This document shows, piece after piece, positions 979-64,000 of a DNA stretch of 64,000 nucleotides. The stretch is from Candidatus Acidiferrum sp. (GTDB taxonomy: Bacteria > Verrucomicrobiota > Verrucomicrobiia > Limisphaerales > UBA8199): positions 127,052 through 191,051 of the forward strand of contig DATMRF010000117.1 in NCBI GenBank assembly GCA_035566435.1, written 5' to 3'. The notes beneath the pieces were generated by a model. That model did not search any database. It had not been told where the DNA came from and saw nothing but the letters and a program-made list of their open reading frames with translations. The position numbers were made by a program, and so were the translations under genes. Each line of letters begins with the position of its first letter. Positions within the stretch are counted from its first letter, which is position 1.

Positions 979-1617
979 TCACATGAGGTTAAGCTTTTCC
1001 GTCATTTCTTTAATCGATTCGGGGGTGATGCCCCTTTTTGCCTGGGGCGGAGGCTGGGAGTTCAAGTTGAGCTGGAGTTGGGCCTGGTCGGCGAGGTGGC
1101 GTTCGCACTTTAGGCCGCCGGTGGTGAGTCGGGCCAGGGAGTTGAGCATGCGCAAGAGGTTGAGGGGGTTGGCTTTGATGGCTTCGCGGAGGCTGTCTGC
1201 ACCGAGTTCCGCGACGGCTTCGCAGATGAGGGCAGCGGCAAGCTTGTGGGCGGCCTGAAAGGCCTGGATGCCCTGGTCTTCGCGGGCGAGGTCGAGGGTG
1301 AGCTGGTAGCGGAGCCTGGACTCGTCGAGCAGGCGCTGCTCGCGTAGATGGTCCTGATAACCACCTTTTTTCCACCGGCGGATGGAGTCGGCGGTCAGAT
1401 GCCGGCCCTGTTCGCCGAGCTGCTGGGGGATTTCGTCGAAGGGAAAGCCGTCGTCGAGCAATTGGTCAATGCGAGCACGGACTTCCTTGGGAAGCCGGGC
1501 GACTTTGCCGCGGCGTTGCCTGGAGCGTTTGATGATTGGAATTGGATTCTCGGCTGATTGAGCGGCAGGCGGCTCGGGCGAGGCGATTGAGGAGGCGGTT
1601 AAGGCGGGTTGAGACAT
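979..1617 (-). CDS. Mu gp27-like (DUF3486-type) protein, putative terminase small subunit
   Basis: 212-aa ORF with protein-like composition. The N-terminal RGKVARLPKEVRARIDQLLDDGFPFDEIPQQLGEQGRHLTADSIRRWKK matches the remembered DUF3486 / Mu gp27 pattern (LPxEvR..id.ll..G.t.deI....sRsal.R). It sits directly upstream of the terminase large subunit, in the same order as Mu gp27 and gp28. Confidence 0.45.
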   Translation of the reverse strand: MSQPALTASSIASPEPPAAQSAENPIPIIKRSRQRRGKVARLPKEVRARIDQLLDDGFPFDEIPQQLGEQGRHLTADSIRRWKKGGYQDHLREQRLLDESRLRYQLTLDLAREDQGIQAFQAAHKLAAALICEAVAELGADSLREAIKANPLNLLRMLNSLARLTTGGLKCERHLADQAQLQLNLNSQPPPQAKRGITPESIKEMTEKLNLM

Positions 1618-1705: not shown

Positions 1706-1963
1706 CGGAACCAGGGCCGTCCAAATGCAGAACTTTGCAACTTTTCGAAGACCGGTGTTTCATGTGGCACCTTTCTTTGCGATGCAGAAGGAGCATATTC
1801 AGTACCAGTTTGTGTGAAGTGATATTGGCGGTGAGCGATGAGAACTAATGGAAATTGGCGTGGGGTGGACAAGAAATGGTGAGGCGTTGAAAGTCCAAGG
1901 TCAGAAGTTTCAAGTCTCAAGTCCCGAGTTCCATGGGGAGGGGATGGAGCGCGGCCAACAGCC

Positions 1964-2391: not shown

Positions 2392-3606
2392 TTAGAGCTC
2401 GGTCCAGGAGGTGGCGGAATAGCCGCGGCTGGGGCCGAGTCTGAGCAGGGCCTCATCGAAATGAAAGTCGTAATGGCCGTTCATCGTTATCGTTTTGGTG
2501 ATACTCGAGCCGATGAGGCCAATGTTGGCGCCGCCACCATTCAGGGTGAGGTCCGCCTCGGGCGCGTAGATGCATCCCACAAAGCTCGAGGTTCCAGCGT
2601 AGGTGATGCTCGTCACGCCGGGCAGCCCAAAATAAAAGAAATTCTGCGCTTTTCCGCTCTGCACGGTCGTGTTGCCCGACATCGAGCAAGTTCCCTGGAC
2701 CTGGTATACCGTCAAGGTGCCTGCAAGATTGGTGGCTGAGGCGATAAAGATGTTCGCTGGGTTGAAGCTTAGCGCATCGACTCTCAACCTGACGGTGACT
2801 CCGGGCGCAACATAAACACTGCCTGAGTCGGGGATTTTATAGTCGCCGCCGACCAGGAAAGCGTATTTGTAGGTGACGCCGCCGATGTTCAAATTGTTGG
2901 CTAATGCCGGAAGGAAGGTTGTCGAGGGCAGAACCACATCGGGATAAGTCACGTTAAAATCATTAAAAATGGTGCCGGAGACCTGACCAGCGCCGTTGTT
3001 GTACTGAGCGGTCGGTCCCAAATAAAGATTGCCCGCGATCGTGTGATTGCCAAGATCCACCGGCCCGGTTACGCTGGCAACACTCCCGTTCGTGCTGGTT
3101 TTGGATTGGTCGTACTGGCCATTGGTACTAAGGTTGGTTTTGCCGGAATCGAAGCTGTTGGCGGCCAAGCCACTGCCGTTCATCGCGATGGAGGAGACTG
3201 ACCCGAAGGCAACATTGAACAACGGCAGGATCCTAGTGGTGACGCGCACAACGCGTGACAACGAGCCTGGCATGGAAGGGACAGCGACGTAGCCGGTGCA
3301 GTAAAGGATCGGGAAAAGATTAGTCGTGTAGAGGACGCTATACGAGCCGCCGATTAGGCTCCGGGTCTTCGGCCCATAAACTCCGCCTGACGGTTGTCCC
3401 CAGCCATTGGCGGTGAGGTCCACGACGGCCGCTTGAGGCGCCGCTGGATTCAACTGGGCCAGGGCCTCTTCGATGCCGGCCTCGGCCATTCCGATCGTGC
3501 CATTCCAGGCTTGTGATCGGGAAACGAGCGCTCTTTGGCCGCTGACCAGGTTGAGGTAAGCGAACAGGAAGATCCCCAACATAACGGCGATAAACAGTGT
3601 AACCAT
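2392..3606 (-). CDS. PilX-like type IV pilus assembly / minor pilin-associated protein (PilX_N-type N-terminus)
   Basis: Table ORF 2392..3951, trimmed to the internal Met at 3606 (MVTLFIAVMLGIFLFAYLNLVSGQRALV...AEAGIEEALAQLN). This gives a hydrophobic PilX_N-like N-terminus. The longer N-terminal extension would read through the intergenic hairpin repeat at 3687-3780. The C-terminal ~150 aa are homologous to the C-terminus of the 10510..11649 protein. Confidence 0.6.
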   Translation of the reverse strand: MVTLFIAVMLGIFLFAYLNLVSGQRALVSRSQAWNGTIGMAEAGIEEALAQLNPAAPQAAVVDLTANGWGQPSGGVYGPKTRSLIGGSYSVLYTTNLFPILYCTGYVAVPSMPGSLSRVVRVTTRILPLFNVAFGSVSSIAMNGSGLAANSFDSGKTNLSTNGQYDQSKTSTNGSVASVTGPVDLGNHTIAGNLYLGPTAQYNNGAGQVSGTIFNDFNVTYPDVVLPSTTFLPALANNLNIGGVTYKYAFLVGGDYKIPDSGSVYVAPGVTVRLRVDALSFNPANIFIASATNLAGTLTVYQVQGTCSMSGNTTVQSGKAQNFFYFGLPGVTSITYAGTSSFVGCIYAPEADLTLNGGGANIGLIGSSITKTITMNGHYDFHFDEALLRLGPSRGYSATSWTEL

Positions 3607-3630
3607 CAGGACGCTGCCGCGTTGGCTCAA

Positions 3631-3665
3631 GGTTGCAGGGTTCAAGTTGCAGGTTGCCGGTTGGG
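3631..3665. repeat. GTTGCAGGTTG-type short tandem repeats in the PilX 5' region; the same family in reverse orientation sits at 42141-42177
   Basis: ggttgcagggttcaagttgcaggttgccggttgg here, versus caacctgcaacctgcaactttcaacctgcaac at 42141-42177. Confidence 0.6.
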
Positions 3666-3686
3666 GGCTCAGAGCGTGTTCTAATT

Positions 3687-3780
3687 TCGTAGGAGACGAC
3701 GTCAGGAGTCTCAAACTTCCAATACCAGATGCGAGCTGGCGCGCGATCAGGGACTCCTTACGTCGTCCCCTACAGAGCAG
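3687..3780. repeat. Inverted pair of the dispersed GTAGGAGACGACG..AGGAGTCTC element (hairpin-forming); single copies at 17533-17562 and 21668-21698
   Basis: 3687-3713 gtaggagacgacgtcaggagtctcaaa, and 3756-3780 ggactccttacgtcgtcccctacag, which is its reverse complement. Related copies: gtaggcgacgacacaaggagtctcaagttctc (17533-17562) and gtaggagacgacgtaaggagtctctgatcag (21668-21698). Confidence 0.7.
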
Positions 3781-3829
3781 GCGGATTGCCAAAGAGGCTC
3801 TGAGAGTGCGGGCGGTTTTCATAATGGAT

Positions 3830-4501
3830 TTATTGTTTGTTGCGCAGGACCACCATCGCGGACTGGACGCTTTCAGTATTGACTTTCTGGGCCAGGATGG
3901 TGCGCGAGCATTTCCAGGAGAAGCTGATGAGCTTGCAGAGGCTCGGGTCAAGGGTGCCGGTGGTGTTGGTGGCCGGGTAGAACGAGATATTGGTCGGAGT
4001 CACCACAGGGGTGCGTTGGTAAAGGCTGAAAGCCCAGCGGTCGCACTCAGTCAAGACCGTGATGGGGGATTGGCCGGTTTTGGTCATGACCAGGGTGGCA
4101 TTTGTGGGATTGTACGTCAGAGTGACGCCGATGGCAGTCTGGGGGTTGGTGAAGGACAGGGAGGTATTGGTTTGAAAGGCGGTCAAAGCCTGGGCCTGAC
4201 GGACTTCGCGGCTGATGATGTCCAGGCCATATCGGCTCTTGGAATCGAGGTCGGAATAATTGACGATCGCTACTTCGCTCCGCGCGGCATAGAGCGACAT
4301 GGAAGCAACCGCAGCGAGGACCAGCGAGCCCAGACCCATCGCCACCATTAACTCCATCAAGGTAAACGCCAAGTTGGGCAGGCGGCCTGGCGAAGCCGGG
4401 CGGTAGAGCGTGGCGGCTGGCGGGGGCGGGTTGGTCTCGAATTCGCGGCAGGGACGCCGGCGCTCCCGGTGGAATTGTGCAATGTTGTCCGAGGTCTTCA
4501 T
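3830..4501 (-). CDS. Prepilin-type N-terminal cleavage/methylation domain protein (minor pseudopilin)
   Basis: Table ORF 3830..4516. It contains ...RLPNLA|FTLMELMVAMGLGSLVLAAV, the class III signal with the E+5 hallmark. The start is taken as the ATG at 4501, which overlaps the upstream gene's stop in an ATGA arrangement. The leader is unusually long, so the true start is uncertain. Confidence 0.6.
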   Translation of the reverse strand: MKTSDNIAQFHRERRRPCREFETNPPPPAATLYRPASPGRLPNLAFTLMELMVAMGLGSLVLAAVASMSLYAARSEVAIVNYSDLDSKSRYGLDIISREVRQAQALTAFQTNTSLSFTNPQTAIGVTLTYNPTNATLVMTKTGQSPITVLTECDRWAFSLYQRTPVVTPTNISFYPATNTTGTLDPSLCKLISFSWKCSRTILAQKVNTESVQSAMVVLRNKQ

Positions 4502-10467: not shown

Positions 10468-10505
10468 ACCGTTAACGCAAAGACGCAAAGGAGCAAAGCC
10501 GCAAA
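10468..10505. repeat. Solo copy of the (NCGCAAAG)n element TTAACGCAAAGACGCAAAGGAGCAAAGCCGCAAAGG
   Basis: It matches the left arm of the element at 16461-16635 and lies directly downstream of the cheY-like gene. Confidence 0.65.
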
Positions 10506-10509
10506 GGGG

Positions 10510-16460: not shown

Positions 16461-16635
16461 AGATTTTAACGCAAAGACGCAAGGGTGCAAAGGCGCAAAG
16501 GCGGAAACCGGGTTTAGCCTTGGACGAGCGGCTCACCTTGCGGTGAGCTCAGCGGACCTGCGCTTCGGGCGCGGATTCCTGAGCCCCTTTGTGTCTTCGC
16601 CTCTCGGGGCCTTCGCGTTAAGGAGTTCGACTGAA
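16461..16635. repeat. ~175-bp MITE-like element with (NCGCAAAG) x 4 terminal repeats in inverted orientation
   Basis: Left arm 16461-16500: ttaacgcaaagacgcaagggtgcaaaggcgcaaagg. Right arm 16596-16635: cccctttgtgtcttcgcctctcggggccttcgcgttaagg, approximately its reverse complement. It lies between the moaD-like and doxX genes. Confidence 0.6.
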
Positions 16636-17520: not shown

Positions 17521-17625
17521 AATTTGGGAATTGTAGGCGACGACACAAGGAGTCTCAAGTTCTCAACAATGGGCCGTGATGGATTTCGGAGTAACATTTC
17601 GGCCCCTTTTCGCGTCTGTTTCCGT

Positions 17626-38900: not shown

Positions 38901-39803
38901 TAGGTCAGGGTAGCCGTCACCGTTCAAATCGCGGCACACAACCGTCAGCCCCCAATCCAAGGGAGCTTTCGACAACGCCTGGCCATGCTCGTCTCGGAAC
39001 CGGCCGTCGGTCCACGAGACCGGGGTGAAGTGACCGTGGCCGTCATTGAGGTAAAGCACGTCCGGCTCGCCGAGTTCGAGCACGTGGCCGTCTGGCGTCA
39101 TTTCGAGCCGGTCACGGTCTTCTGGACGCACCATCATTTTCTCCCCCCTCTGGAGGATCAGGTAGCCGGTGGTCCGCACAGTTTCGGCACGGTAATTGGC
39201 CACGTACAAATCCAGGGCACCGTCACCATCGATATCCGCCAACGCCAGGGTCGTGGCGCCGTATTTGCGAAGCAGCCCGCTGTTCTTTGACTCAGTGAAA
39301 TGCCCCCTGCCGTCGTTGATGAAAAGCCGCGTGCCCGTTCCGATCCCGTTGACGAGCAGGTCCAGGTGTCCATCCCCGTCCACATCCACCAAGGCCGCGC
39401 CAGTTGAATATTGACCGTCGCAAGCGACGCCGGCTTGCTCGGTCACATCCTCGAAACGCCAGTTGCCGAGGTTGTGGTAAAGGACATTGTGGTTGTCCAA
39501 ACCGCAGAGATAGATGTCGCAAAGACCGTCGCCATCGACATCGCCCAGCGCCACACCCGCCCCATTGAGCCGAATCTGGTTTTCCGCCGCCCGCGCATCG
39601 CTCAGAACATTGGTGAAGTGAACGCCCGTTTCGCTCGGCGGCAGCAGAGTGAATCCGGGTTTGCCCCCGGACGGCACCGGCAATGCAGCGCGCCGGCCAT
39701 AAGGCTCGGCTTCCCATCGTAAATCCGCAGCCACGAGTGAAGCGGCGCCGAAGATCAGAGCCGAACAGAAAACGGAGCGCATCAGCCTAAGCGACATCAT
39801 CAA
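35952..39803 (-). CDS. CRTAC1-family protein (ASPIC/UnbV plus FG-GAP repeats), duplicated architecture (1283 aa), secreted
   Basis: Table ORF. Many DxDGDGxxD FG-GAP-like repeats (DVDGDGLCD, DVDGDGHLD, DIDGDGALD, DLDNDGDLD...). Two UnbV_ASPIC-like segments (...GIGARVELIA..., ...GAGTQIRARFGSRSGPVREISAGGGYWSQDA...). A TTG/ATG start cluster overlaps the upstream gene's stop. Confidence 0.7.
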   Translation of the reverse strand: MMMSLRLMRSVFCSALIFGAASLVAADLRWEAEPYGRRAALPVPSGGKPGFTLLPPSETGVHFTNVLSDARAAENQIRLNGAGVALGDVDGDGLCDIYLCGLDNHNVLYHNLGNWRFEDVTEQAGVACDGQYSTGAALVDVDGDGHLDLLVNGIGTGTRLFINDGRGHFTESKNSGLLRKYGATTLALADIDGDGALDLYVANYRAETVRTTGYLILQRGEKMMVRPEDRDRLEMTPDGHVLELGEPDVLYLNDGHGHFTPVSWTDGRFRDEHGQALSKAPLDWGLTVVCRDLNGDGYPDLYICNDFQTEDRIWLNDGHGNFRAAPGLMFRHTPSFSMCVDVADINRDGHFDLFVADMLSPRHSRRLLQLAETAPYLPAVGVYEDRPQFDRNALQLNRGDNTFADIAPYAGLPATEWTWLGAFLDVDLDGYEDLLCTTSHEFDTQDLDAEARIRAKGPWPREKVPQKLLLYPRMTQPKQAFRNRGDLTFEDAAAAWGFNQPGVTQGMAFGDLDNDGDLDVVVNNLNGVAGIYRNNSSAPRIAVRLKGNSPNTHGIGARVELIAEVGHQTENEGDSRELVPPKSPPSAATVKFVQSQEMCAGGRYLSSDEPMRVFAADVTQALRSRWSQSHPDSTPMPNAIHLQLKVHWRSGTESVVENPSPDYLYEIAESASQLHGSGASEAPPAKPLFEDLSSRLHHSHHDDPFDDLVRQPLLPRKLSQLGPGISWFDFDRDGHEDLIIGSGKGGRIAVFRNDGNGGFTAVDNPSVSAGVGRDQTGAVGAAGNGQNPVVLVGSSNYEDGHSTGPMLRIYDLKSGTVSDSFAGQESSSGPLALADVHGTGRLDLFVGGRCVPGKWPAPATSLLFENQNGQYVLDLTNTMQLANLGLVSGAIFADLNGDGWPDLVLACEWGPIRVFLNEHGRLREATAELGLDSYVGWWHGVTVGDFDGDGLLDIAASNWGLNGGPDGYERPALIADYKGEDRPGVPLVFWGDFTGSHGVDVIEAEYDSELGKVVPIRAKPAMELGLPFVSAKFQTYAAYDNAAVADVLGDQYSSASKLAAPWLASTVFLNHRGKFEPVVLPREAQLSPAFGICVADFDGDGNEDLFLAQNFFGVQPQAVRCDAGRGVLLRGDGHGHFETVPGQVSGLTVYGEGRGAAVCDFDEDGRVDLAVGQNGAETRLFHNTSAKPGLRVHVSGPRGNPDGAGTQIRARFGSRSGPVREISAGGGYWSQDAATQVLATPEPLTGLWVRWPGGTTNIFEVPAGARKITLSKDGVTLQKAGER

Positions 39804-42055
39804 TGGTGATGATGCGGTGGCACGCTGTTGGTATCAATGCGGAAGCTCTTGAGGTTCCAGGGAGTGGCCTGAGCCTGGTCTTCCCGGACTTTATAGAACC
39901 GATCCATCGTCAGGCCGGTAAGAATTTGAGTGCGGCCGGTCCGGGGCCAGAAAATTTCCACCTGAGCGATGGATTGCGCCTGGCCAAGGCCGATTTCCTG
40001 GCGTAACGGAGAGGCGCCGAAACTGCCGCCGGTTCCCACGGTTTTGTAGTAACTGCGTTCACCGGAGGCACTCCGGACCACGACGCGGATCCGAGCGCCG
40101 ATCGCCGCCCGATTTGATTGAACCCCTTCGAGCTTGAGCGTGACCCAATGATTGCTGGTGCCCGGATTCAAGTAGAGCACGTTGTGATAAACGTCGCCGC
40201 TGACCGCGCCACCCATGTTTTCGTAAATGTCCTGATTTCCGTCATTGTCGATGTCGCCGAACGACACGCCATGGCCCTTCTGTAGATTACCGAAACCCCC
40301 GGCGGTTGTGACGTCCTGAAACCTTTTGCCGGCGTCGTTACGGAACATCCGATTTGGCACAATCGTCGCCAGGTCCGGGTCACCGGTTCCGAGATAAAAA
40401 TCCAGATAACCGTCGTTGTCCAGGTCTCCAAAGTTGGAGCCCATGGCGTGCAAGACGTGGTAAAGCCCCATTTGTTGTGTTACGTCGGTGAACGTCCCAT
40501 CGTGATTGTTGTGGTAAAGGCGGGCCCGCTCGGCATTGGTCGGCAGCCCCAGGTAATCCGCGCAAATATCCCCAACATTATTGATGCGATAGCCGGAAAC
40601 AAAGAGGTCATCCCAACCGTCGTTATCGTAGTCAAAGAACCAGCAGGGAAAACTGTAGAGCGGCTCGGTCACCCCGGCCTGCCTGGCGACATCGGTGAAC
40701 TTCCAGATTGGCTTGCCCGCCGCGTTGGTGCCAGCGGGTCCGTCGTTGCGAAACAAAACATTGGGCGCGCCTAGAACTGAAAGGTACAGATCGGGCCGGC
40801 CGTCGTGGTTGAAATCCGCGCTGCAGACACCTTTGACAAACCCAATGAAGCCCACGCCGCACTCCAGGGCGCATTCGGTAAACGTGCCGTCATGGTTATT
40901 GTGGTAGAGCTCGCAACGATTGGTGCTTGGTCCAACCGATTCGTGGCCGACGAACAAATCGAGCCAGCCATCATTGTCGTAGTCGAACCACACCGCTGTC
41001 TGAGAAGGTTTGAGGGAAAGCAACCCTGCCGCCTCGGTTACATCCTCAAAGGTGCCGTCGCCGTTATTGCGCAATAAAGATTTCGGTAAGCGGCCTTCGT
41101 CCCGCAACCAGGCTCCGCGCAACACCAACACGTCGGGAAAGCCGTCGTTATTATAATCGGCCTGGATCAGGTTCAATCCGCCGACTTCTCCCAGCAGCCC
41201 TGCCTGTTCGGTTCGTTCGCTGAACGTGCCATCCCCGTTATTGTGATAGAGGCGAAGTTGATCCTGAAAGCCGATCGAGGAACACATTATGTCCAGATTC
41301 CCGTCCCCATCGAAGTCCTCCAAAATGCTGCCGCCCGATCGCTTCATCGGGTCCACTCCCAGCGCGCCCGCGACGTCTGGAAAGTGTTCGAGCGGGTATG
41401 CCGAAGCAAAGGCGCTGGGCGGGACCAACCATCTGGCCGGCACTTTGTCCGGGTATTCGCCCACCGTCATGCTGGCAATATTCAGTAGCCAGCGAGCGGA
41501 AAGGTCGTTCGTGTTTTGTTCAAGAACTTCCGTGAGGATTTGAATGGCGTGGCGTGAGCCCTCCTGGAATCGATGAATGCCCCGACCCTGGATCGGCGCC
41601 AGGCATGATTCGGGATTATGGTCCGCCAGGCAGTTGGTCATCTCGCCAATCCTCATCCAGCAGAGCGCTTCCTTGAGCTTTAACGTCGACCAGTTCCTTT
41701 TCGAACCTTCCGGGTTGTATGCTCTGAACCCGCTCTCGAAGCCTTCGAACTCCCGCAGCGCGTCCTCGTTCTGGCCGGAGTCCAATAACTCGCAGGCCAG
41801 GGAATATTGCAGATTCAAATGTTGAGCGGGATCCTTGGTTTCCGCCACCTTCGCTCGCAGCAGCTTGGCGCGCTCGGTATTCAGAAAAATATTGTTCACC
41901 GGGTTTGCCTGAGCTGCCAGTTTTTGCAGCCGCTCCGCCATGCCAATCGTGCCGGGCCCCCGCGGATCCCGCGCCGCCTCGGCCGAAAAGCCGTGGAACC
42001 CGCCAGCGAAGACCAAGGAAAGAAGGCACAGCAACGCTCGGCCGCGCAGCGCCAT
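39800..42055 (-). CDS. CRTAC1-family protein (TPR-like N-terminal region plus FG-GAP repeats plus ASPIC/UnbV), natural C-terminal His4
   Basis: Table ORF 39800..42160, trimmed to the Met giving a signal-peptide-like MALRGRALLCLLSLVFAGG. Repeats DFDGDGNLD, DYNNDGFPD, DYDNDGWLD, DLDNDGYLD, DIDNDGNQD. UnbV-like ...AIGARIRVVV...SGERSYYKTVGTGGSF.... Ends ...PPHHHH*. Confidence 0.65.
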   Translation of the reverse strand: MALRGRALLCLLSLVFAGGFHGFSAEAARDPRGPGTIGMAERLQKLAAQANPVNNIFLNTERAKLLRAKVAETKDPAQHLNLQYSLACELLDSGQNEDALREFEGFESGFRAYNPEGSKRNWSTLKLKEALCWMRIGEMTNCLADHNPESCLAPIQGRGIHRFQEGSRHAIQILTEVLEQNTNDLSARWLLNIASMTVGEYPDKVPARWLVPPSAFASAYPLEHFPDVAGALGVDPMKRSGGSILEDFDGDGNLDIMCSSIGFQDQLRLYHNNGDGTFSERTEQAGLLGEVGGLNLIQADYNNDGFPDVLVLRGAWLRDEGRLPKSLLRNNGDGTFEDVTEAAGLLSLKPSQTAVWFDYDNDGWLDLFVGHESVGPSTNRCELYHNNHDGTFTECALECGVGFIGFVKGVCSADFNHDGRPDLYLSVLGAPNVLFRNDGPAGTNAAGKPIWKFTDVARQAGVTEPLYSFPCWFFDYDNDGWDDLFVSGYRINNVGDICADYLGLPTNAERARLYHNNHDGTFTDVTQQMGLYHVLHAMGSNFGDLDNDGYLDFYLGTGDPDLATIVPNRMFRNDAGKRFQDVTTAGGFGNLQKGHGVSFGDIDNDGNQDIYENMGGAVSGDVYHNVLYLNPGTSNHWVTLKLEGVQSNRAAIGARIRVVVRSASGERSYYKTVGTGGSFGASPLRQEIGLGQAQSIAQVEIFWPRTGRTQILTGLTMDRFYKVREDQAQATPWNLKSFRIDTNSVPPHHHH

Positions 42056-42140
42056 CGCGGAACTTGGTCTGAATCCGAGTAAAATTCGGCAGAAAAACTT
42101 TCTCACATGATCGGGTTTCGAGTGAACCGTACCTCGAATC

Positions 42141-42177
42141 ATCCAACCTGCAACCTGCAACTTTCAACCTGCAACAG
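42141..42177. repeat. CAACCTGCAAC tandem repeats (reverse orientation of the 3631-3665 family)
   Basis: atccaacctgcaacctgcaactttcaacctgcaac. Confidence 0.6.
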
Positions 42178-42236: not shown

Positions 42237-42638
42237 CTATTGACATTTTTCATCTTCTTTGCGCTTTTGCACCAAGCAGTTTGACACGTGCTTCCATGCG
42301 CCCATGTTAAGCCGACGGGCGATCCATTTCAATGTCATCGTGGTGCGGGCGCGCAACTGGCAAGCGATCTCGACCTTCTCCGGGTCGCCTTTGCGCCGGC
42401 AGTTGAGCTCCGCTTCCGCCCAGCCTCGCCGGCGTAATTCCTCCTTTACGACGCGCTCGGCATGTAACAGGTCGGCGTCGCGCAACTCGGGTCCATAGGG
42501 GTCGGCGCGGCGCTCGTGCATCTGCGCCAACAGTTCCTCTTTGAACGCCTTGTCTCCCGGAAACCAGCCTCGTTCCACGGCTTTCCAGTCAGCCGGGAAA
42601 CGGGTCGAACCGTAGATTGGAACTGGAGTCGTGCGCAT
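42237..42638 (-). pseudogene. C-terminal fragment of a long Y1 (RAYT-like) transposase with a DnaA-C-like HTH tail
   Basis: Table ORF of 133 aa. ...RRKGDPEKVEIACQLRARTTMTLKWIARRLNMGAWKHVSNCL matches the remembered C-terminal extension of Planctomycetes/Verrucomicrobia COG1943 transposase-like proteins. No in-frame N-terminal HUH domain lies upstream; the adjacent frames are junk. Confidence 0.4.
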
Positions 42639-42940
42639 GGCGCCGTTTCCATTGCGGGTTTCTCACGGGGATGCACCCAATGATATGCATCCCCAAGCTC
42701 GCCGTCCGCTACCAGCCCAGGAAGGCAGTTTTTGCGACCCTTCGTGCCCTTTTGTGGCTAAACATTTTCTCCCCGCCGTCCAACCCCGCCCCTCGCCCCT
42801 CGACTCTCGACCATTCCTGACTATTCCACGCAGGATACTTTGGGATGCTTTTGCGACACTTTTGGGACGCTTTGAAAATGCAAAAACCTGGGTAAATAGG
42901 CCCTTGGGACGCCGGGACGCTTCGTTTACCCCCTCGCCGC

Positions 42941-43920
42941 ACGCGAAAGAATCACGACCGCCCGGCAACCCTGTCACCCTCAAGGCCAAAGGTTGCCACA
43001 AACCTTACCGGCGACCGGCTCGCTTCTTGCCAACCCTTGCCCGCGACTCGAGACTTGAGACCTGTCACCGTTTGTCACCGTTTGTCACCGCTGGAAACGC
43101 ACAGATCCATCGGTAAACACGGGCTTGTCACCGTGTCACCGCTGTTTTACCCCCCTTCAGCACACATTACTTTTTACACCCTCCCTCCGCGTACCTGGGT
43201 CGGCCGGCCCGGTATCCGCCACTCACAGTCAGTATCACCTAACCTTCAGGGATCAGCCCTTGCCAACCCTCATGGATCATCCTTGTCAACCTCAAGGATC
43301 AGCCTTTGGCAACCCCTGAAACGCGCAATCACTCGGTAAATACGGCGGGTGGAAACGTTTCCACCCATGGATCACCCCTGGATCACCCCCTGGCGCGAAA
43401 GAAAGAATCACGACTGCCCAGCGACCCTGTCACCCTACAACACCAAAGAAAGCTCACCGGCGACCCGCTCAATCCGTGTAATCCGTGTAATCCGTGGTCC
43501 AAACCTCCTTTGTCACACTGTCACACCCTGTCACGCGCAGCCGGCTATTCTCCACCTTCCCTCCCTCCCTTTCCGCGTGTTCCGTGTATTCCGCGGTTCA
43601 TTGACGCTCCTGTCACGGGTTTGTCGCGGCTTTGTCCCGGATTTGTCCCGGATTTGTCACGGCTCAAAAACCGCTAAAATTTCCCAGCAAATACCGCGTT
43701 GTCACGGTGTCACGGGTCAAAACCACCCCCCTGCGCGCACAACACCATCGCCGTCCCCAGAGCCTCACCCTTCCGCCATTCCCGGCTGGCGTCTTCCCCG
43801 GTCCAGCGACACTCCTGTCACACCTTGTCACGGTTCAAAGCGTGACAGGGTGAGCCTTGTCACGCTTTCAAAAGTGAAAATCCCTCGTCAAACACGGCCT
43901 TGTCACGGTGTCACGCTTTG
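42941..43920. repeat. Array of about 20 same-strand TGTCAC hexamers (often as 8-10 bp spaced doublets) plus an ~80-bp direct repeat (42941-43020 vs 43392-43475), 10-12-bp tandem duplications and palindromes; ORF-free
   Basis: Read directly; see the finding at 42640-44810. The 190-aa ORF 43349..43921 is a repeat translation (CHGVT recurring) and is not called. Confidence 0.8.
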
Positions 43921-44826
43921 AAAGCTCTCCACCCCACCCTCGCCGGAGAAAATAAAATTTATCCTTCAGCCTTTAGCCTTCCCATCCCAACTGCCGATAG
44001 CTCCCGCTGGCCTGTCCCCGCATCCGCACCTATCTGCAGCCATCTGCAGTCATCTGCAGCCATGTGCATAGTGAAAGTCTTCCCCACCCCGTCTGCACTC
44101 GATTACGCTTAATTTCAGCTACGGACGCCCAATTACGGGAAATTCCTCCAGGGCCGAACTGCAGTTTTCGCCTTTCTGCCCGCGCCCGCCTTCGTGCTCT
44201 GCCCCTGTCAACTGTCAACTTTCCAAAGTTGACACAATCGTTCTTCTCAACTTCGACCAACCGCGGCCAACCGCGGCCAACCGCGCGCTTCCCGGTCAAA
44301 GTTCAGCCCACATCGATATCACCTAATAACACTTTATATCAGTTACTAACACCTACTACCGCGTACTAACACTTCCCGCATTTTGCCACGAACTGTTATT
44401 CGCTCCCCGCACCCAGCCCGATCATCACTTTGTGCCTTCTTGTCGTTATTCGGTCCTCGTCCGTGCCATCCGTGTCATCCGTAGTTCAACACCTCCCCGC
44501 TCAAGTTCGCTCTCGCAAAAACTCGACCAATCTCGACTAATCTTGAGTAATCTCGACCAAAATTAATTTCCCCCTTTCAGGGACTTCGGACGTTGGCCTT
44601 TCGACCTAGCGGGCAAACCGACGTTTTCTCTGGGAAAAAGCGGACCTGACCCTGCTGGGACGACGTGAACGTGTACTACGTCTTGGGCACATTGGTCGTC
44701 AGAACAGGGCCGATCAGACGAACCCCGGCCTGCAGACGCCCCGGTTTCGGAACGTTCAGTTTTAGGTTGAAATTCTTCGCTGACAGTGGATATTAGTAGA
44801 GGTATAAGAGCAGATTGGGTGATTTT

Positions 44827-45377: not shown

Positions 45378-46403
45378 GTGAATCAGAACGTGCCGAGCGT
45401 CACGGTGTTGATCGCCGCCCGCCCGGGCCAGGCGGAGGTTAAGGCCGTTGACGCCAGCCGTGCGCTGGATTATCCGGCCGACAAACTGGAAATCATTGTG
45501 GCCCGGGGCAAACAGCCCTCGGCCCAGCGCAACGCCGCGCTGAAAGCCGCGCGCGGAGAACTCACCTACTTTCTCGACGATGATTCCTTGCCGGAGGCTG
45601 CAAATCTGCGGCGAGCCATCGCACACTTCAGCAGGCCGGAGGTCAAAATGGTCGGCGGCCCGAATGTCTGCCCGCCGGCGGCGCCCGAGCTGGAGCAAGT
45701 CTTTGCGCTAGTGTTAGGAAGCTGGCTGGCACTCGGGCCGAGCCGCGCACGGTACACACCGGTGGGACAGGTCCGCGAGACCAGCGAGAAGGAATTGATT
45801 CTGTGCAACCTGGTCGCGCGCCGGGACGCGATGCTGGAGTTAGGGGGGTTCAACGAAGCACTCTATCCCAACGAAGAAAATGCCTTGATGGACGAGCTGC
45901 AGAAGCGCGGGGGCAAGCTCGTTTATGACCCGGCGTTTGTGGTGCATCGGCGGCCCCGTCCAAATCTCGCGGCGTTTGCCAGGATGCTGATGACTTATGG
46001 GCGTGGCCGGGCGGAGCAATTCAGGCTGCACCCCACTCCCGGGTCGGCGCTCAACTTTGTCCCGCCGCTCTTTCTGGTTTACCTGGTGTCGTTGGTTGCC
46101 GTGCCCTGGGTCGGGACGATTCTTTTGGTCCCCCTCGGGGTGTACGGCTTGGCGGTGTTGACGCAGGCGGCGGTCCTGAGAGTCTCAAGTCCCAAGTCTC
46201 AAGTCCCAGGTTCGCACTCCACGGTCCAAAGTCCACCTACGAGTACAGGGCAACAAGTATTTCGGCGCGTTGCGGTGATTCCGCTGATCTGTCTGACTCA
46301 TGTGCTCTATGGTGCGGGGTTCTGGCGAGGCTTGTTCACGAGGCTGGGCACCGGTGCGCAGCCGCCGCCGCCGGCAGTGGTCCTTGAGACTGTCGCGCGG
46401 TGA
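45378..46403 (+). CDS. Family 2 glycosyltransferase (GT2) with a C-terminal membrane region; contains an in-frame repeat-element insertion
   Basis: Table ORF. VTVLIAARPGQAEVKAV... DYPADKLEIIVARG...QRNAALKAARGELTYFLDDDSLPE shows the GT2 DxD. The C-terminal TM helices are interrupted by the S/P/Q-rich segment LRVSSPKSQVPGSHSTVQSPPTSTGQQ, encoded by the dispersed repeat at 46176-46255. Confidence 0.65.
   Translation: MNQNVPSVTVLIAARPGQAEVKAVDASRALDYPADKLEIIVARGKQPSAQRNAALKAARGELTYFLDDDSLPEAANLRRAIAHFSRPEVKMVGGPNVCPPAAPELEQVFALVLGSWLALGPSRARYTPVGQVRETSEKELILCNLVARRDAMLELGGFNEALYPNEENALMDELQKRGGKLVYDPAFVVHRRPRPNLAAFARMLMTYGRGRAEQFRLHPTPGSALNFVPPLFLVYLVSLVAVPWVGTILLVPLGVYGLAVLTQAAVLRVSSPKSQVPGSHSTVQSPPTSTGQQVFRRVAVIPLICLTHVLYGAGFWRGLFTRLGTGAQPPPPAVVLETVAR
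46176..46255. repeat. Dispersed (AGTCTCAAGTCCCAG)n-CACGGTCCAAAGTCCAC element, copy located inside the GT2 CDS (in-frame)
   Basis: gagtctcaagtcccaagtctcaagtcccaggttcgcactccacggtccaaagtccacctacgag. The same family occurs at 1878-1928, 48086-48175 and 51828-51890. Confidence 0.75.
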
Positions 46404-49400
46404 AGACGCCGCTCTGGACAAACGCCATCAAGAGCTGCGCTGATCCGCAGCGGGCTGGACATTTTCTGGACCTGCTGGCAAGCACACCTGCCCGCGAAGC
46501 ACTAACGTCCTTTTCGCCTGAACAGGCGGGCATCCTGGCTGCCTTATTCAGCGGCTCGCAGGCGCTCAGCAACACCCTCGTCACCCACCCTGATTGGCTC
46601 GCGATTTTTGAGCCTGAACGTCTGAAATTCGCCCGACGCAAGCAGGGGTTGCAACAGGAGGTAAGTCGCGCCCTGCAGCCGCTCCTCCAGCAACGCGATT
46701 ACGCTGCGGCGTTGGCGCGAGTGCGCGAGTTCAAGCAACGCGAGATGCTGCGCATCGGCGCCCGGGACCTCGCCCGCTTGGGGCGGCTGCCGGAAATTTT
46801 GCTGGAGCTTTCCGATGTGGCTGAGGTTTCCCTCGACGGGGTTTGGCGGGTCTGCCATTCGCAATTGACCGAGCGTTATGGCCGGCCCTACCACCAGGAT
46901 GCGTCCGGCCGCTGGCGCAAAACCTCGGCTTGCGTGCTCGGGATGGGCAAACTAGGCGGGCAGGAACTCAACTACAGCTCGGATGTCGATCTCCTGCTGG
47001 TCTATAGCGAGGAGGGGGAGGTTTACGCTCACGAGCCCCCGGCAATGGAGGCGGAAAAGGGCGGCCGCGGACGGAAGCGTGCGCACTCCGATGCGCCACG
47101 GCCCGTGCTGGCGAACCACCAGTTTTTCAAACGGCTCGCAGAAGCCTTCATCGCGGAAGTGACACGCCTGGCGCCGGAAGGGGCGCTTTACCGGATCGAT
47201 TTCAGGCTGCGGCCCGAAGGCGAGGGCGGACCGCTGAGCCGTTCGCTCGCCAGTTACGAGAACTACTACGCCCAATGGGGTCAGACCTGGGAGCGAATGA
47301 TGCTGATCAAGGCCCGCGGCGTTGCCGGCGATGAAATGCTGGCGGCGGAGTTTCTCGAGATGGTCCAGCCTTTTAGGTACCCTCGTTCGATCAATGACGG
47401 CGTCCTGGGTGAGGTCGGGGCGATGAAAGACCGGATTGAAAACGAGGTGGTCAAGGCCGGCGAACTTGAGCGGAACGTGAAACTCGGGCGCGGCGGCATC
47501 CGGGAAATCGAGTTTATCGCGCAATCCGTGCAGTTGCTGCACGCCGGCAGGCAGCCGTTCCTACAGGGAGCTCAGACGCTGCCCTGTCTGGAAAAGCTCG
47601 TGCAGTACGAGCTCTTGTCCGCTGTGGACTCGCGCCTGCTGCGGGACGCCTACGTGTTCCTCCGCGAGGTCGAGCACCGCCTCCAAATGGAGGATAACCG
47701 GCAGACCCACACAATCCCGGCCAACCGGCCGGCCCAGGAACGGCTCGCGCGCCTGCTCGGGTTCAGCCATGCCCGCGAGTTCGAATCGGCGCGCCAGGAA
47801 CACACTGTCAACGTCCGCCGCATCTTCGATGAACAGCTCAAGGCCGAAGTCCCCCAACTCAGCGCCGGGTCGCCTTTCCCGCGCCATTTCGAAGGTGCCG
47901 AGGCCGAGTGGAAGCGGCTCCTTGCTGACCACGCTTTCAAGGACGTGGACAAGGCCTTTCGTGTGCTGCGGGAGTTCGTCGAAGGTCCCGGTTTCGTGCA
48001 TGTGTCGCCGCGCACCAGCGAGCTGGCCTTTCAGTTGTTGCCGAAGTTTTTTGCTCTGTGCCCTCACGAAGGTGCTTGCGAAGCACGTCCAAAGTCCCAG
48101 GTCTCAAGTCCCAGGTCTCAAGCTTCAGGTCTCAAGTCCCGGGCTCAAGGTCCAGGGTCTGCCCACGCAAACGGGGCAGCGAGAGCGCCGCTTTCCGATC
48201 CCGACCGCGTGGTGACACGGCTGGACAATTTTATCGGCGCGTATGGGGCACGGGCGACGCTCTTTGAGTTGTGGGCGCACAACCCGGCGATTTTTGAACT
48301 GTTGGTGCTGCTGTTCGACCGTTCGGAATTCCTCGCCGAGCTCTCCATCCGCACGCCGGATCTTGTGGATGAATTGGTTGCCAGCGGCCGTTTGCGCCAG
48401 CGGAAAACCGCGGAGGAAACCCTGCGCGATTTGCGGCATGGGGTGCGCGATGCAGACCAACACCTTTGGCTGCGCCGGTATCACCAGGCCGAGCTCATGC
48501 GCATCGGCTTGCGGGACATCCTCGGCCTGGCGGATTTCGAACAATACCTGACCGAGCTGTCCGCCCTTGCCGATGCTTGCCTGCAGTACGCGCTCGAAGT
48601 GGTGTTGCGCAAACACCGCCTCAAGGCACCACCTTTTGCCATCATCGGCCTCGGCAAATTGGGCGGCGCGGAAATCGATTACGGGTCGGACCTGGACATC
48701 GTGTTCGTGGCGGACGCTAAGGCGAAAAACCTGACGCGACTTTCACGGTTGGCCCTGGAGGTGATGGAGTTGGTCTCGCGCCGGACGGAGCAAGGTCTGG
48801 TCTTTCATACCGACGCGCGGCTGCGGCCGGACGGCGAAAAGGGCCTGCTCGTCAATACGCTGAAGGCTTATAAGGATTATTATCGGCACCGTGCCCACCT
48901 TTGGGAAATCCAGACTCTCACGCGCACGCGCCCCGTGGCTGGCGACCTGGTGGTGGGGCAGCAATTCCAAAACCTGGCGGCCGCGTTGACGAACTTTGCC
49001 GCTCCGAGCCTGCCGCTGGCGGCCTACTCGCCCGATTGGAAGCAGAAGATCCATCAGATGCGCCTGCGCATCGAGAAGGAACGCACCCGGCGCAGCCAGG
49101 ATGAGCTGGCCATCAAGACCGGCTCCGGGGGCTTGATGGACGCTGAATTTGTCGCACAGTCGCTGTGCATGGAGTACGGCTGGCAGGAGGCCAACACGAT
49201 GAGGGCGCTGGAAAAAGGGCGCGACGCTGCGGTCCTTCCCGGCGCGGACAAACTCATCCGCCATTATCGCGAACTCCGGCGTGTCGAGGGTATCCTGCGG
49301 CGCTGGAGCTACGAAGGTGAAACCGTGTTGCCCGACGACCCGGAGCCCTACTATCGCGTGTCAGTCCGGTGCGGTTTCGCAACACCCGGGGCGTTTCGCA

Positions 49401-49459
49401 AAGCGATAAGGGCCTGCCGAAAGGCGATTCGCGAGGTATATGCCAGCGTGTTTACTTAA
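46400..49459 (+). CDS. glnE: Bifunctional glutamine synthetase adenylyltransferase/adenylyl-removing enzyme
   Basis: Table ORF of 1019 aa. Two nucleotidyltransferase cores (GMGKLGGQELNYSSDVDLLLVY and GLGKLGGAEIDYGSDLDIVFV). There is a 4-bp overlap with the GT2 gene. The inter-domain linker contains a repeat-element insertion (...EARPKSQVSSPRSQASGLKSRAQGPGSAHA...). Confidence 0.85.
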   Translation: MKTPLWTNAIKSCADPQRAGHFLDLLASTPAREALTSFSPEQAGILAALFSGSQALSNTLVTHPDWLAIFEPERLKFARRKQGLQQEVSRALQPLLQQRDYAAALARVREFKQREMLRIGARDLARLGRLPEILLELSDVAEVSLDGVWRVCHSQLTERYGRPYHQDASGRWRKTSACVLGMGKLGGQELNYSSDVDLLLVYSEEGEVYAHEPPAMEAEKGGRGRKRAHSDAPRPVLANHQFFKRLAEAFIAEVTRLAPEGALYRIDFRLRPEGEGGPLSRSLASYENYYAQWGQTWERMMLIKARGVAGDEMLAAEFLEMVQPFRYPRSINDGVLGEVGAMKDRIENEVVKAGELERNVKLGRGGIREIEFIAQSVQLLHAGRQPFLQGAQTLPCLEKLVQYELLSAVDSRLLRDAYVFLREVEHRLQMEDNRQTHTIPANRPAQERLARLLGFSHAREFESARQEHTVNVRRIFDEQLKAEVPQLSAGSPFPRHFEGAEAEWKRLLADHAFKDVDKAFRVLREFVEGPGFVHVSPRTSELAFQLLPKFFALCPHEGACEARPKSQVSSPRSQASGLKSRAQGPGSAHANGAARAPLSDPDRVVTRLDNFIGAYGARATLFELWAHNPAIFELLVLLFDRSEFLAELSIRTPDLVDELVASGRLRQRKTAEETLRDLRHGVRDADQHLWLRRYHQAELMRIGLRDILGLADFEQYLTELSALADACLQYALEVVLRKHRLKAPPFAIIGLGKLGGAEIDYGSDLDIVFVADAKAKNLTRLSRLALEVMELVSRRTEQGLVFHTDARLRPDGEKGLLVNTLKAYKDYYRHRAHLWEIQTLTRTRPVAGDLVVGQQFQNLAAALTNFAAPSLPLAAYSPDWKQKIHQMRLRIEKERTRRSQDELAIKTGSGGLMDAEFVAQSLCMEYGWQEANTMRALEKGRDAAVLPGADKLIRHYRELRRVEGILRRWSYEGETVLPDDPEPYYRVSVRCGFATPGAFRKAIRACRKAIREVYASVFT
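48086..48175. repeat. Dispersed (AGTCTCAAGTCCCAG)n element, copy inside glnE (in-frame, in the linker between the two halves)
   Basis: cacgtccaaagtcccaggtctcaagtcccaggtctcaagcttcaggtctcaagtcccgggctcaaggtccagggtc. Confidence 0.75.
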
Positions 49460-51827: not shown

Positions 51828-51890
51828 AGGTCCGAGCGCGCAGTTCACAATTCACGGTCCAGAGTCCACATTCCGTCTTCCGCCTTCTGA
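51828..51890. repeat. Variant copy of the dispersed ...CACGGTCCAGAGTCCAC... element, in the divergent arfB/ymdB promoter region
   Basis: aaggtccgagcgcgcagttcacaattcacggtccagagtccacattccgtc, compared with ttcgcactccacggtccaaagtccacctac at 46210-46240. Confidence 0.55.
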
Positions 51891-63695: not shown

Positions 63696-64000
63696 CCGCC
63701 TGAATATTGAACCACCCGAATCCCGCACGCAATGTGTTTGATGTGAGGGATTACCGAGAGGCTAAAGTGCTCCGGCGCGGCAGACGACTTTGGGCCAAAC
63801 TACGCACCACGCTTCACGTTTCACGCATCACGAATCCCGCAGCCCGCATGACGTATCACGCATCACTCTTCCCCCTCCGTTCAATCGTTGTGCCTGACCT
63901 CCCGCGTTGGCAGACTCACCCCCTCATTGAAACACGCGCCCGATACTGAGCCATCGAGGTCGGAGGCCCGGCTGGGGATTATCCTCGGTGTCGGGGCGGT

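Follow-up and report, generated by a model that had tools for sequence, protein, structure and literature searches.

A heptanucleotide repeat array as the probable source of an in-frame loop insert in a Limisphaerales glycosyltransferase

Results

A nine-heptamer array is read in frame within a GT2 gene

The stretch of DNA analysed here (the window: 64,000 nucleotides (nt) of contig DATMRF010000117.1) contains a gene for a glycosyltransferase family 2 (GT2) protein which carries, in a loop of its C-terminal membrane region, an insert encoded by nine tandem 7-nt units. We consider it likely, with a probability of roughly 0.85, that this insert is a heptanucleotide simple-sequence repeat (SSR) array, of the type of long SSRs or of the short tandemly repeated repetitive (STRR) sequences, that became fixed in frame in a tolerant loop. 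The host gene and the array are located as follows:

45378..46403, plus strand: GT2 (ExoA-like) glycosyltransferase host gene; open reading frame (ORF) of 341 amino acids (aa); Pfam PF13641, PF13632 and PF00535
46181..46243, plus strand: array of nine heptamers in the GT2 gene, detected by Tandem Repeats Finder (TRF) and lag-7 identity; 63 nt, 21 codons

An earlier reading of the window, made from the letters alone (the sequence-only reading), had described positions 46176-46255, inside the 45378..46403 coding sequence (CDS), as a repeat element with a 15-bp unit inserted in frame in a GT2 gene. Sequence and ORF agreed with this location, Pfam family matches confirmed the host as a GT2 glycosyltransferase, and the protein, which is 100% identical to HWW02130.1, is read through the segment in frame (..LRVSSPKSQVPGSHSTVQSPPTST.. 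in the 341-aa ORF; the wider segment is read as ..VLRVSSPKSQVPGSHSTVQSPPTSTGQQ..). The true unit, however, is 7 nt long, with a 14-nt dimer: TRF detected periods of 7 and 14 at positions 46181-46208, and the lag-7 identity of the array was 0.62 (0 of 20000 shuffles were as high), compared with a lag-3 identity of only 0.10. The period is thus a property of the DNA and not of the codons or the peptide, and successive units are read in different frames. In register, the array consists of the units AGTCTCA AGTCCCA AGTCTCA AGTCCCA GGTTCGC ACTCCAC GGTCCAA AGTCCAC CTACGAG, the first four of which represent an exact 14-mer (AGTCTCA-AGTCCCA) present twice, while units 5-9 are decayed. The heptamer GGTCCTG (Val-Leu codons) upstream of the array was considered as a native seed and rejected, as it is out of register with the array.

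The array codes for VSSPKSQVPGSHSTVQSPPTS. Because 7 is coprime to 3, three consecutive units are each read in a different phase, resulting in a peptide period of 7 aa (S-P/L-K-S-Q-V-S/P), and a unit residing in a gene must consequently be stop-free in every phase. The 15-mer proposed earlier does lack forward stop codons and has one TGA in a reverse frame, as read from the sequence; the accompanying claim that forward insertions are tolerated in any phase has to be reworded, since arrays of three or more units pass through all phases wherever they begin, and a stop-free unit is thus a necessity.

An alignment of 40 orthologues and a loop survey of 113 orthologues revealed that the array accounts for an extra 21 aa compared with the modal orthologues of 323 aa, whose loop comprises 17 aa (..QAVVLAAGGRVFQSLAAI..). 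Judged from these alignments, the segment is an insertion relative to the modal orthologues, and it was confirmed as lineage-specific and as part of a loop in the C-terminal membrane region. In the AlphaFold2 model (mean predicted local distance difference test score, pLDDT, of 86.5) the insert lies in a coil, aa 267-289, between the helices 250-266 and 290-320, and the model is least confident at aa 271-277 (pLDDT <50), the block 271-280 averaging 46. The encoded peptide is hydrophilic, rich in Ser, Pro, Lys and Gln, and probably disordered.

The adjacent glnE gene contains a related in-frame array

When 46176-46255 was aligned locally with the remainder of the window, the maxima over 20 shuffled windows (23-28) serving as the null, positions 48092-48139 emerged as the closest relative with a score of 50. 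This segment is part of a second array in the downstream gene:

46400..49459, plus strand: glnE (glutamine synthetase adenylyltransferase, 1019 aa); Pfam GlnE (4e-106) and GlnD_UR_UTase
48086..48162, plus strand: array of about 11 heptamers in the inter-domain linker of glnE; TRF period 14, 4.2 copies; lag-7 identity 0.60 (0 of 20000 shuffles)

Its units (CGTCCAA AGTCCCA GGTCTCA AGTCCCA GGTCTCA AGCTTCA GGTCTCA AGTCCCG GGCTCAA GGTCCAG GGTCTGC) belong to the same AGTCCCA/GGTCTCA sub-family as those of the GT2 array, and the array is likewise in frame, encoding ..PKSQVSSPRSQASGLKSRAQGPGS... The sequence-only reading had regarded the repeat as otherwise intergenic, which holds for most of its copies in the window, but it had missed this strongest relative inside glnE. 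The linker, situated between ..FALCP and LSDPDRVVTRLD.., is hypervariable, with a length of 7-58 aa across about 50 orthologues. In GlnE orthologues, 14 arrays were detected in six of 47 sequences and at four sites, mostly in alignment columns that few other orthologues occupy (occupancy down to 0.02), and the GlnE arrays are accordingly lineage-specific insertions. The GlnE orthologue at L025 5092-6445 (PSRM01000306.1, a Verrucomicrobia metagenome-assembled genome) contains seven heptamer arrays with different units at three sites, one of which is unique (column occupancy 0.02) and harbours the three abutting arrays AAACACC, AAACTTC and AAACTCC.

The GT2 and glnE genes overlap by 4 nt (GTGA) at the GT2 stop and the glnE start, and the order and adjacency of the two genes are kept in about 50 related Limisphaerales loci (among loci L006-L085), a conservation of gene order that suggests a conserved operon.

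Copies at unlinked loci share units but not flanks

Three further copies of the unit family were located in non-coding DNA of the window:

1892..1931, plus strand: intergenic array AGTCCAA GGTCAGA AGTTTCA AGTCTCA AGTCCCG AGTTC; score 34 at 1905-1931
51828..51890, plus strand: intergenic array of the same broad family; score 34 at 51843-51869; lag-7 identity 0.62
43045..43064, minus strand: two-unit non-coding copy GGTCTCA AGTCTCG; score 25, within the null range, hence a weak member

The first is situated between the minus-strand genes 979..1617 and 2392..3951, positions 1878-1931 having a lag-7 identity of 0.60. The second (units AGGTCCG AGCGCGC AGTTCAC AATTCAC GGTCCAG AGTCCAC ATTCCGT CTTCCGC CTTCTGA) lies in the divergent intergenic region between an RF-1-domain gene (start 51792, minus strand) and ymdB (51937, plus strand), and matches the decayed part of the GT2 array at 16 of 17 bases. 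The similarity claimed earlier between the GT2 segment and intergenic copies thus exceeded the shuffled control at these two loci, whereas a third proposed relative at 17545-17570 scored 22, which is at chance level. Overall, two tandem RGTCYMA units with at most one mismatch were matched 12 times in the window, compared with 0.76 matches expected, and 0 of 100 shuffles reached 12. About 14 heptamer arrays are present in the window, only two of them in confirmed CDSs. The array at 3630-3663, although inside the maximal ORF 2392..3951, was not counted as intragenic because the protein probably begins downstream of it, with a hydrophobic helix.

The sequence-only reading had taken these copies for a discrete dispersed element that inserted. 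An ORF-compatible mobile element, resembling a miniature inverted-repeat transposable element (MITE) or a Rickettsia palindromic element (RPE), that transposed into GT2, glnE and the intergenic sites would explain why several unlinked loci within 64 kb have one 14-mer sub-family in common, why identical units are found at unlinked loci far above chance, and why a metabolic gene is entered in frame, as is the case with RPEs (PMC10969869). The structure of the copies argues otherwise. Local alignments between copies span 27-48 nt of heptamer array only and never reach the flanks, so that similarity ends at the array edges; array lengths vary from about 20 to 77 nt; no inverted repeat was found in 46100-46330; and the RNA fold of 46170-46260 (−17.2 kcal/mol, z = −0.30) showed no structure beyond chance and no palindrome. 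Neither terminal inverted repeats nor a conserved consensus of about 100-150 bp could be recognized, leaving in-frame insertion in unrelated genes as the feature shared with RPEs and MITEs. There is no associated transposase, orthologous arrays differ in unit variant and number (see below), and dozens of unrelated units occur in the lineage. The RPE/MITE reading was therefore rejected on structure, and we regard transposition of a discrete element as highly improbable. What remains of the proposed family is that unlinked loci share identical units far more often than expected by chance; a discrete mobile element is not supported. Similarity confined to the arrays, varied units at orthologous sites and dozens of unrelated units are instead the signature of tandem SSRs evolving in place.

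Period-7 arrays are abundant in the lineage

Tandem arrays were counted in the window and 85 related loci, together 1.27 Mb of Limisphaerales DNA, all of them GT2-glnE neighbourhoods:

Period 6: 17 arrays; 2 in shuffles
Period 7: 84 arrays, 7 of them in the window alone; 0 in shuffles
Period 8: 9 arrays; 0 in shuffles
Periods 9-15: at most 6 arrays each; 0 in shuffles

The units are diverse, with dozens of unrelated ones, and AAAGTCC, AAGTCCG, AAGTCCC, AAAGTTC, AATCAGT, AACATCG, AAACGTG and ACGCATC recur. In-frame arrays were found in relatives within valyl-tRNA synthetase (ValRS; RKSEVRSPKSEVS) and RibD (MSPKSKVQSPKSS), and further in QueG, an SNF2 helicase, a LuxE-like protein and a debranching-enzyme fusion, the last with several arrays. 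In the related loci, a sample biased to GT2-glnE neighbourhoods, 38 of 85 arrays are located deep in ORFs of at least 300 aa, and in 30 of these 38 the coding strand is A+C-rich (p = 5e-4), a composition that fits selection for hydrophilic, stop-free translations.

Pairs of arrays with identical units made up 5.3% of the pairs within a locus (one genome each) and 1.2% of those between loci, the random-unit expectation being about 0.09% by our own estimate. As single copies, the unit heptamers are not over-represented. A search of a collection of 5.8 billion proteins with the synthetic translation (SLKSQVSSPKSQVP)x4 returned only four short hypothetical proteins at E <= 1e-3 and carries no information, since the size of such a database keeps short low-complexity matches from becoming significant.

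All relatives with a credible label belong to Verrucomicrobiota, Limisphaerales or Pedosphaera; on this sequence evidence, the label of the source record, 'Candidatus Acidoferrum sp.' (Acidobacteriota), is probably wrong. Several other SMAG-series records among the matches also bear implausible labels (Binatia, Limnocylindrales, Haliangiales).

Arrays at the GT2 loop differ between species in unit and number

At the GT2 loop, the orthologue of L003 (91% aa identity) carries the same AGTCYCA array as the window with substitutions, whereas other orthologues carry different variants: AGTCCAN five times in L001, AGTCCRA four times in L007, and in L004 three ACAGTCC units followed by CAAGTCC-type units, 12 units in total (+21 nt, +7 aa). 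In L005 the array is decayed, and L002 is nearly without periodicity. The number of units is thus nine in the window, 12 in L004 and lower in L005, L002 and L007. Differing variants and unit numbers at one site indicate concerted turnover within the array and not copies of a fixed element.

Among the 113 orthologues, loops longer than the modal one tend to exceed it by 7, 14, 21 or 28 aa. Of the 21 insert types, which were delimited by eye, nine are multiples of 7 (binomial p = 0.0014; 0.013 with the clade of the window taken as one observation). Neighbour-joining with the loop removed yielded one clade with the insert in all members and several gains nested among insert-free sequences. One such independent gain among insert-free orthologues, in P0020/L089, comprises 63 nt with a lag-7 identity of 0.54 and other units; their resemblance to a native GGGCGAA beside the insert is suggestive only. 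A survey of 148 loops, which made use of 80 loci from a metagenome scan for close GT2 alleles (one sequence at >=79% identity among the matches listed), showed 124 loops to be modal, i.e. without an insert. Significant lag-7 periodicity was detected in eight of the 17 distinct expanded loops.

The insert peptide itself could be the object of selection, as a functional linker or motif, for example a phosphorylation- or glycosylation-prone Ser/Pro-rich loop, with the DNA periodicity being secondary. SPKS-type peptides indeed appear in GT2, GlnE, ValRS (RSPKSEV) and RibD (SPKSKVQSPKS). However, the base period is 7 nt and not 21 nt, the same units are present in non-coding DNA, close orthologues keep the heptamer periodicity and not the peptide sequence, and the insert is missing from most orthologues, which makes this explanation improbable.

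The near-identical strains P0125, P0126, P0128 and P0129 (98% identity) showed no unit-number changes or indels in either array (3-4 sequences); in the 98% identical GlnE fragment of P0129, five of 17 substitutions fall in the linker (aa 560-591). Unit number, for which the sequence-only reading had envisaged variation between strains, therefore varies between species and not among these near-identical strains, and array turnover, as far as these sequences tell, is slow.

In simulations, slippage of one or two units in either direction replaced or truncated the last helix of the GT2 protein (products of 297-338 aa), and slippage of one or two units in the glnE array truncated GlnE to 602-624 aa, whereas a change of three units kept the reading frame in both arrays. 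Glycosyltransferases are classic targets of phase variation, and the disruption of the last GT2 helix would agree with a contingency locus in which the enzyme is switched off and on by a frameshift whenever one or two units are gained or lost. Yet only four near-perfect units are present in the GT2 array, the near-identical strains, although few, lack length variation, length differences between species keep the frame, and the same arrays are present in glnE, ValRS and RibD, housekeeping genes for which on/off switching would be of little use. Phase variation at this locus thus appears very unlikely.

Other tandem repeats in the window

Further arrays in the window consist of other heptamers. 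CAACCTG arrays are found at two distant loci, 42144-42175 (plus strand) and 3630-3663 (minus strand), in each case at or just upstream of the 5' end of a minus-strand gene, encoding an FG-GAP/ASPIC protein (39800..42160) and a DUF7305 protein (2392..3951), respectively. At 1964-2003, 5.7 copies of ATCAGTA (TTACTGA on the other strand) are one base away from the TAACTGA heptamer repeat (PMC4679880), and the related locus L082 (2177-2734 and 9781-9931) has four further occurrences of the ATCAGTA unit. The probably intergenic ACGCATC array at 63802-63866 (nine copies) shares its unit with L015, where it is inside ValRS, and L061.

Positions 813-974, between two minus-strand genes, contain two adjacent non-heptamer tandem arrays (GGTTATCA x7 / TCAGGTG x8; TTAGGTGCCG x5). 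Arrays of one 8-nt unit (ACGCAAAG / CGCAAAGG), with about four copies each, are located 6 kb apart at 10475-10507 and 16470-16507, and this is another unit family common to unlinked sites. The region 42640-44600, about 2 kb without a credible ORF, is dense in TTGTCAC(C/G)G motifs, with 17 plus-strand matches in 43062-43908, including eight of the nine exact matches in the window; the motifs form short tandem runs (TGTCACCGTT x3; TGTCACGGATT x4.7) beside other 9-23 bp tandem repeats. By its sequence, the region resembles an iteron or protein-binding array more than a heptamer SSR. It is flanked by a 133-aa ORF (42237-42638, minus strand) with no Pfam match, the C-terminus of which (..TTMTLKWIARRLNMGAWKHVSNCL) may be similar to the DnaA-like helix-turn-helix tails known from some transposase-associated proteins. 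A scan of the window at Rfam gathering thresholds detected one tRNA only.

Discussion

The features described above are best explained if replication slippage or unequal exchange creates short 7-nt arrays and keeps them turning over throughout the Limisphaerales lineage. The arrays and their turnover are observed, while slippage or unequal exchange as the molecular mechanism is inferred from what PMC4679880 relates of the proposal by Mrazek et al. (2007). Genes would keep only net lengths divisible by 3, so that whole-unit steps amount to three units, i.e. 21 nt or 7 aa, and only units that are stop-free in all three phases of the coding strand, and that lie in loops or inter-domain linkers, would persist; the pattern of surviving arrays shows these conditions of frame, stop codons and position. 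The array would then be translated into a disordered, hydrophilic peptide, its structure being predicted by the model and the lack of an evident function of its own being our inference, and would finally decay by point mutation, as the five 3' units of the GT2 array have done already. The same process would also have produced the neighbouring glnE linker array. The length of the GT2 array, exactly nine units or 63 nt or 21 codons, and the occurrence of the same unit family in non-coding DNA both speak for this explanation.

Several observations weigh against this explanation. About half of the expanded GT2 loops are without a heptamer signal, and these may be decayed or of other origin. Slippage was not seen directly, the unit number being constant among the near-identical strains P0125, P0126, P0128 and P0129. 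As only GT2-glnE neighbourhoods were sampled, the intragenic share of 38/85 is no genome-wide estimate. Identical units at unlinked loci are in excess over chance, and the 14-mer RGTCTCAAGTCCCR is found at four or five loci in 64 kb, both of which independent slippage alone would not predict; and since single copies of the unit heptamers show no enrichment, abundant seeds do not account for the unit family. An improbable but conceivable extension is that a small set of favoured heptamers spreads to unlinked loci by a sequence-specific process beyond plain slippage, and thereby continually seeds disordered loops and linkers, in 7-aa steps, in otherwise conserved housekeeping proteins. Templated copying, an exchange between arrays by gene conversion, or an enzyme working in a 7-nt register could be such a process. 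If this were true, the Limisphaerales would possess a dedicated generator of protein-linker variation and would offer a tractable model for the dispersal problem posed by STRR and TAACTGA repeats.

Coding DNA is generally said to avoid non-triplet SSRs, the usual view being that frameshifts caused by slippage exclude them; here a whole order tolerates 7-nt arrays in essential enzymes. Fixation of heptanucleotide SSRs in frame provides a concrete source, at the DNA level, of lineage-specific disordered insertions in conserved proteins, and the arrays appear to drive the evolution of loop and linker length in steps of 21 nt (7 aa). It also implies a warning for annotation, as S/P/K/Q-rich inserts of this sort are neither frameshift errors nor mobile elements. 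As the over-representation of heptamer SSRs and occasional read-through have already been described, the advance is incremental; the modestly surprising part is that non-triplet SSRs are found in frame in housekeeping genes across an order, in 21-nt steps.

Compared with known systems, the resemblance to RPEs is one of outcome only, namely repeat-derived in-frame segments at fold-compatible sites of unrelated metabolic genes. RPEs are palindromic, MITE-like elements of about 150 bp with a conserved full-length consensus and peptide per family (PMC10969869). The GT2 segment, by contrast, comprises 63 nt, is non-palindromic and tandem and has no conserved ends, in agreement with the earlier view that it is unrelated to them.

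The STRR heptamers of heterocystous cyanobacteria such as Calothrix and Nostoc include CCCCAGT, TTGGTCA and CAACAGT. Cyanobacterial STRR sequences (PMC4692102) share with the arrays described here a small set of favoured heptamer units, the tandem arrangement and the dispersal over many loci, and differ in that they belong to another phylum and are described as intergenic, whereas the units here are RGTCYMA and others. The arrays do not represent STRRs in the strict sense, since their units are AGTCYCA/RGTCCAN and all relatives with a credible label are Verrucomicrobiota/Limisphaerales. A literature search for heptamer repeats in Verrucomicrobiota or Limisphaerales returned no report.

The GT2 array belongs with the long heptanucleotide SSRs, its closest analogues being the cyanobacterial STRRs and the TAACTGA repeats. 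Long heptanucleotide SSRs are reported to be the most abundant class of long SSRs in many genomes, above all in large GC-rich ones (Mrazek et al., 2007, as quoted in PMC4679880 and PMC4692102), and are described as mostly intergenic (PMC4692102, PMC4679880). Like the arrays described here, they form short runs of tandem 7-nt units at a large number of loci, with a strong over-representation of period 7. Of the features of the long SSR or STRR-like class, the GT2 array displays head-to-tail 7-nt units, an excess of period 7 and unit turnover between species; the difference is that a sizeable share of the arrays here is in frame inside conserved housekeeping genes. TAACTGA direct repeats of Beggiatoaceae, Cyanobacteria and Bacteroidetes (MacGregor, 2015, PMC4679880) are likewise favoured heptamers in arrays of 2-6 copies at many loci that are not enriched as single copies, and some of them lie within ORFs, where they are translated in the orientation without stops and mostly form part of the periphery of the protein. 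They cluster just upstream of start codons, however, and the ORF-internal cases are mostly in hypothetical proteins, whereas the array family described here has another unit and occupies internal loops or linkers of conserved enzymes. TAACTGA has been regarded as a 'favoured sequence' without an evident mechanism (PMC4679880), and the arrays described here extend the puzzle of favoured heptamers, so far posed by cyanobacteria, Beggiatoaceae and Xanthomonas, to the Verrucomicrobiota.

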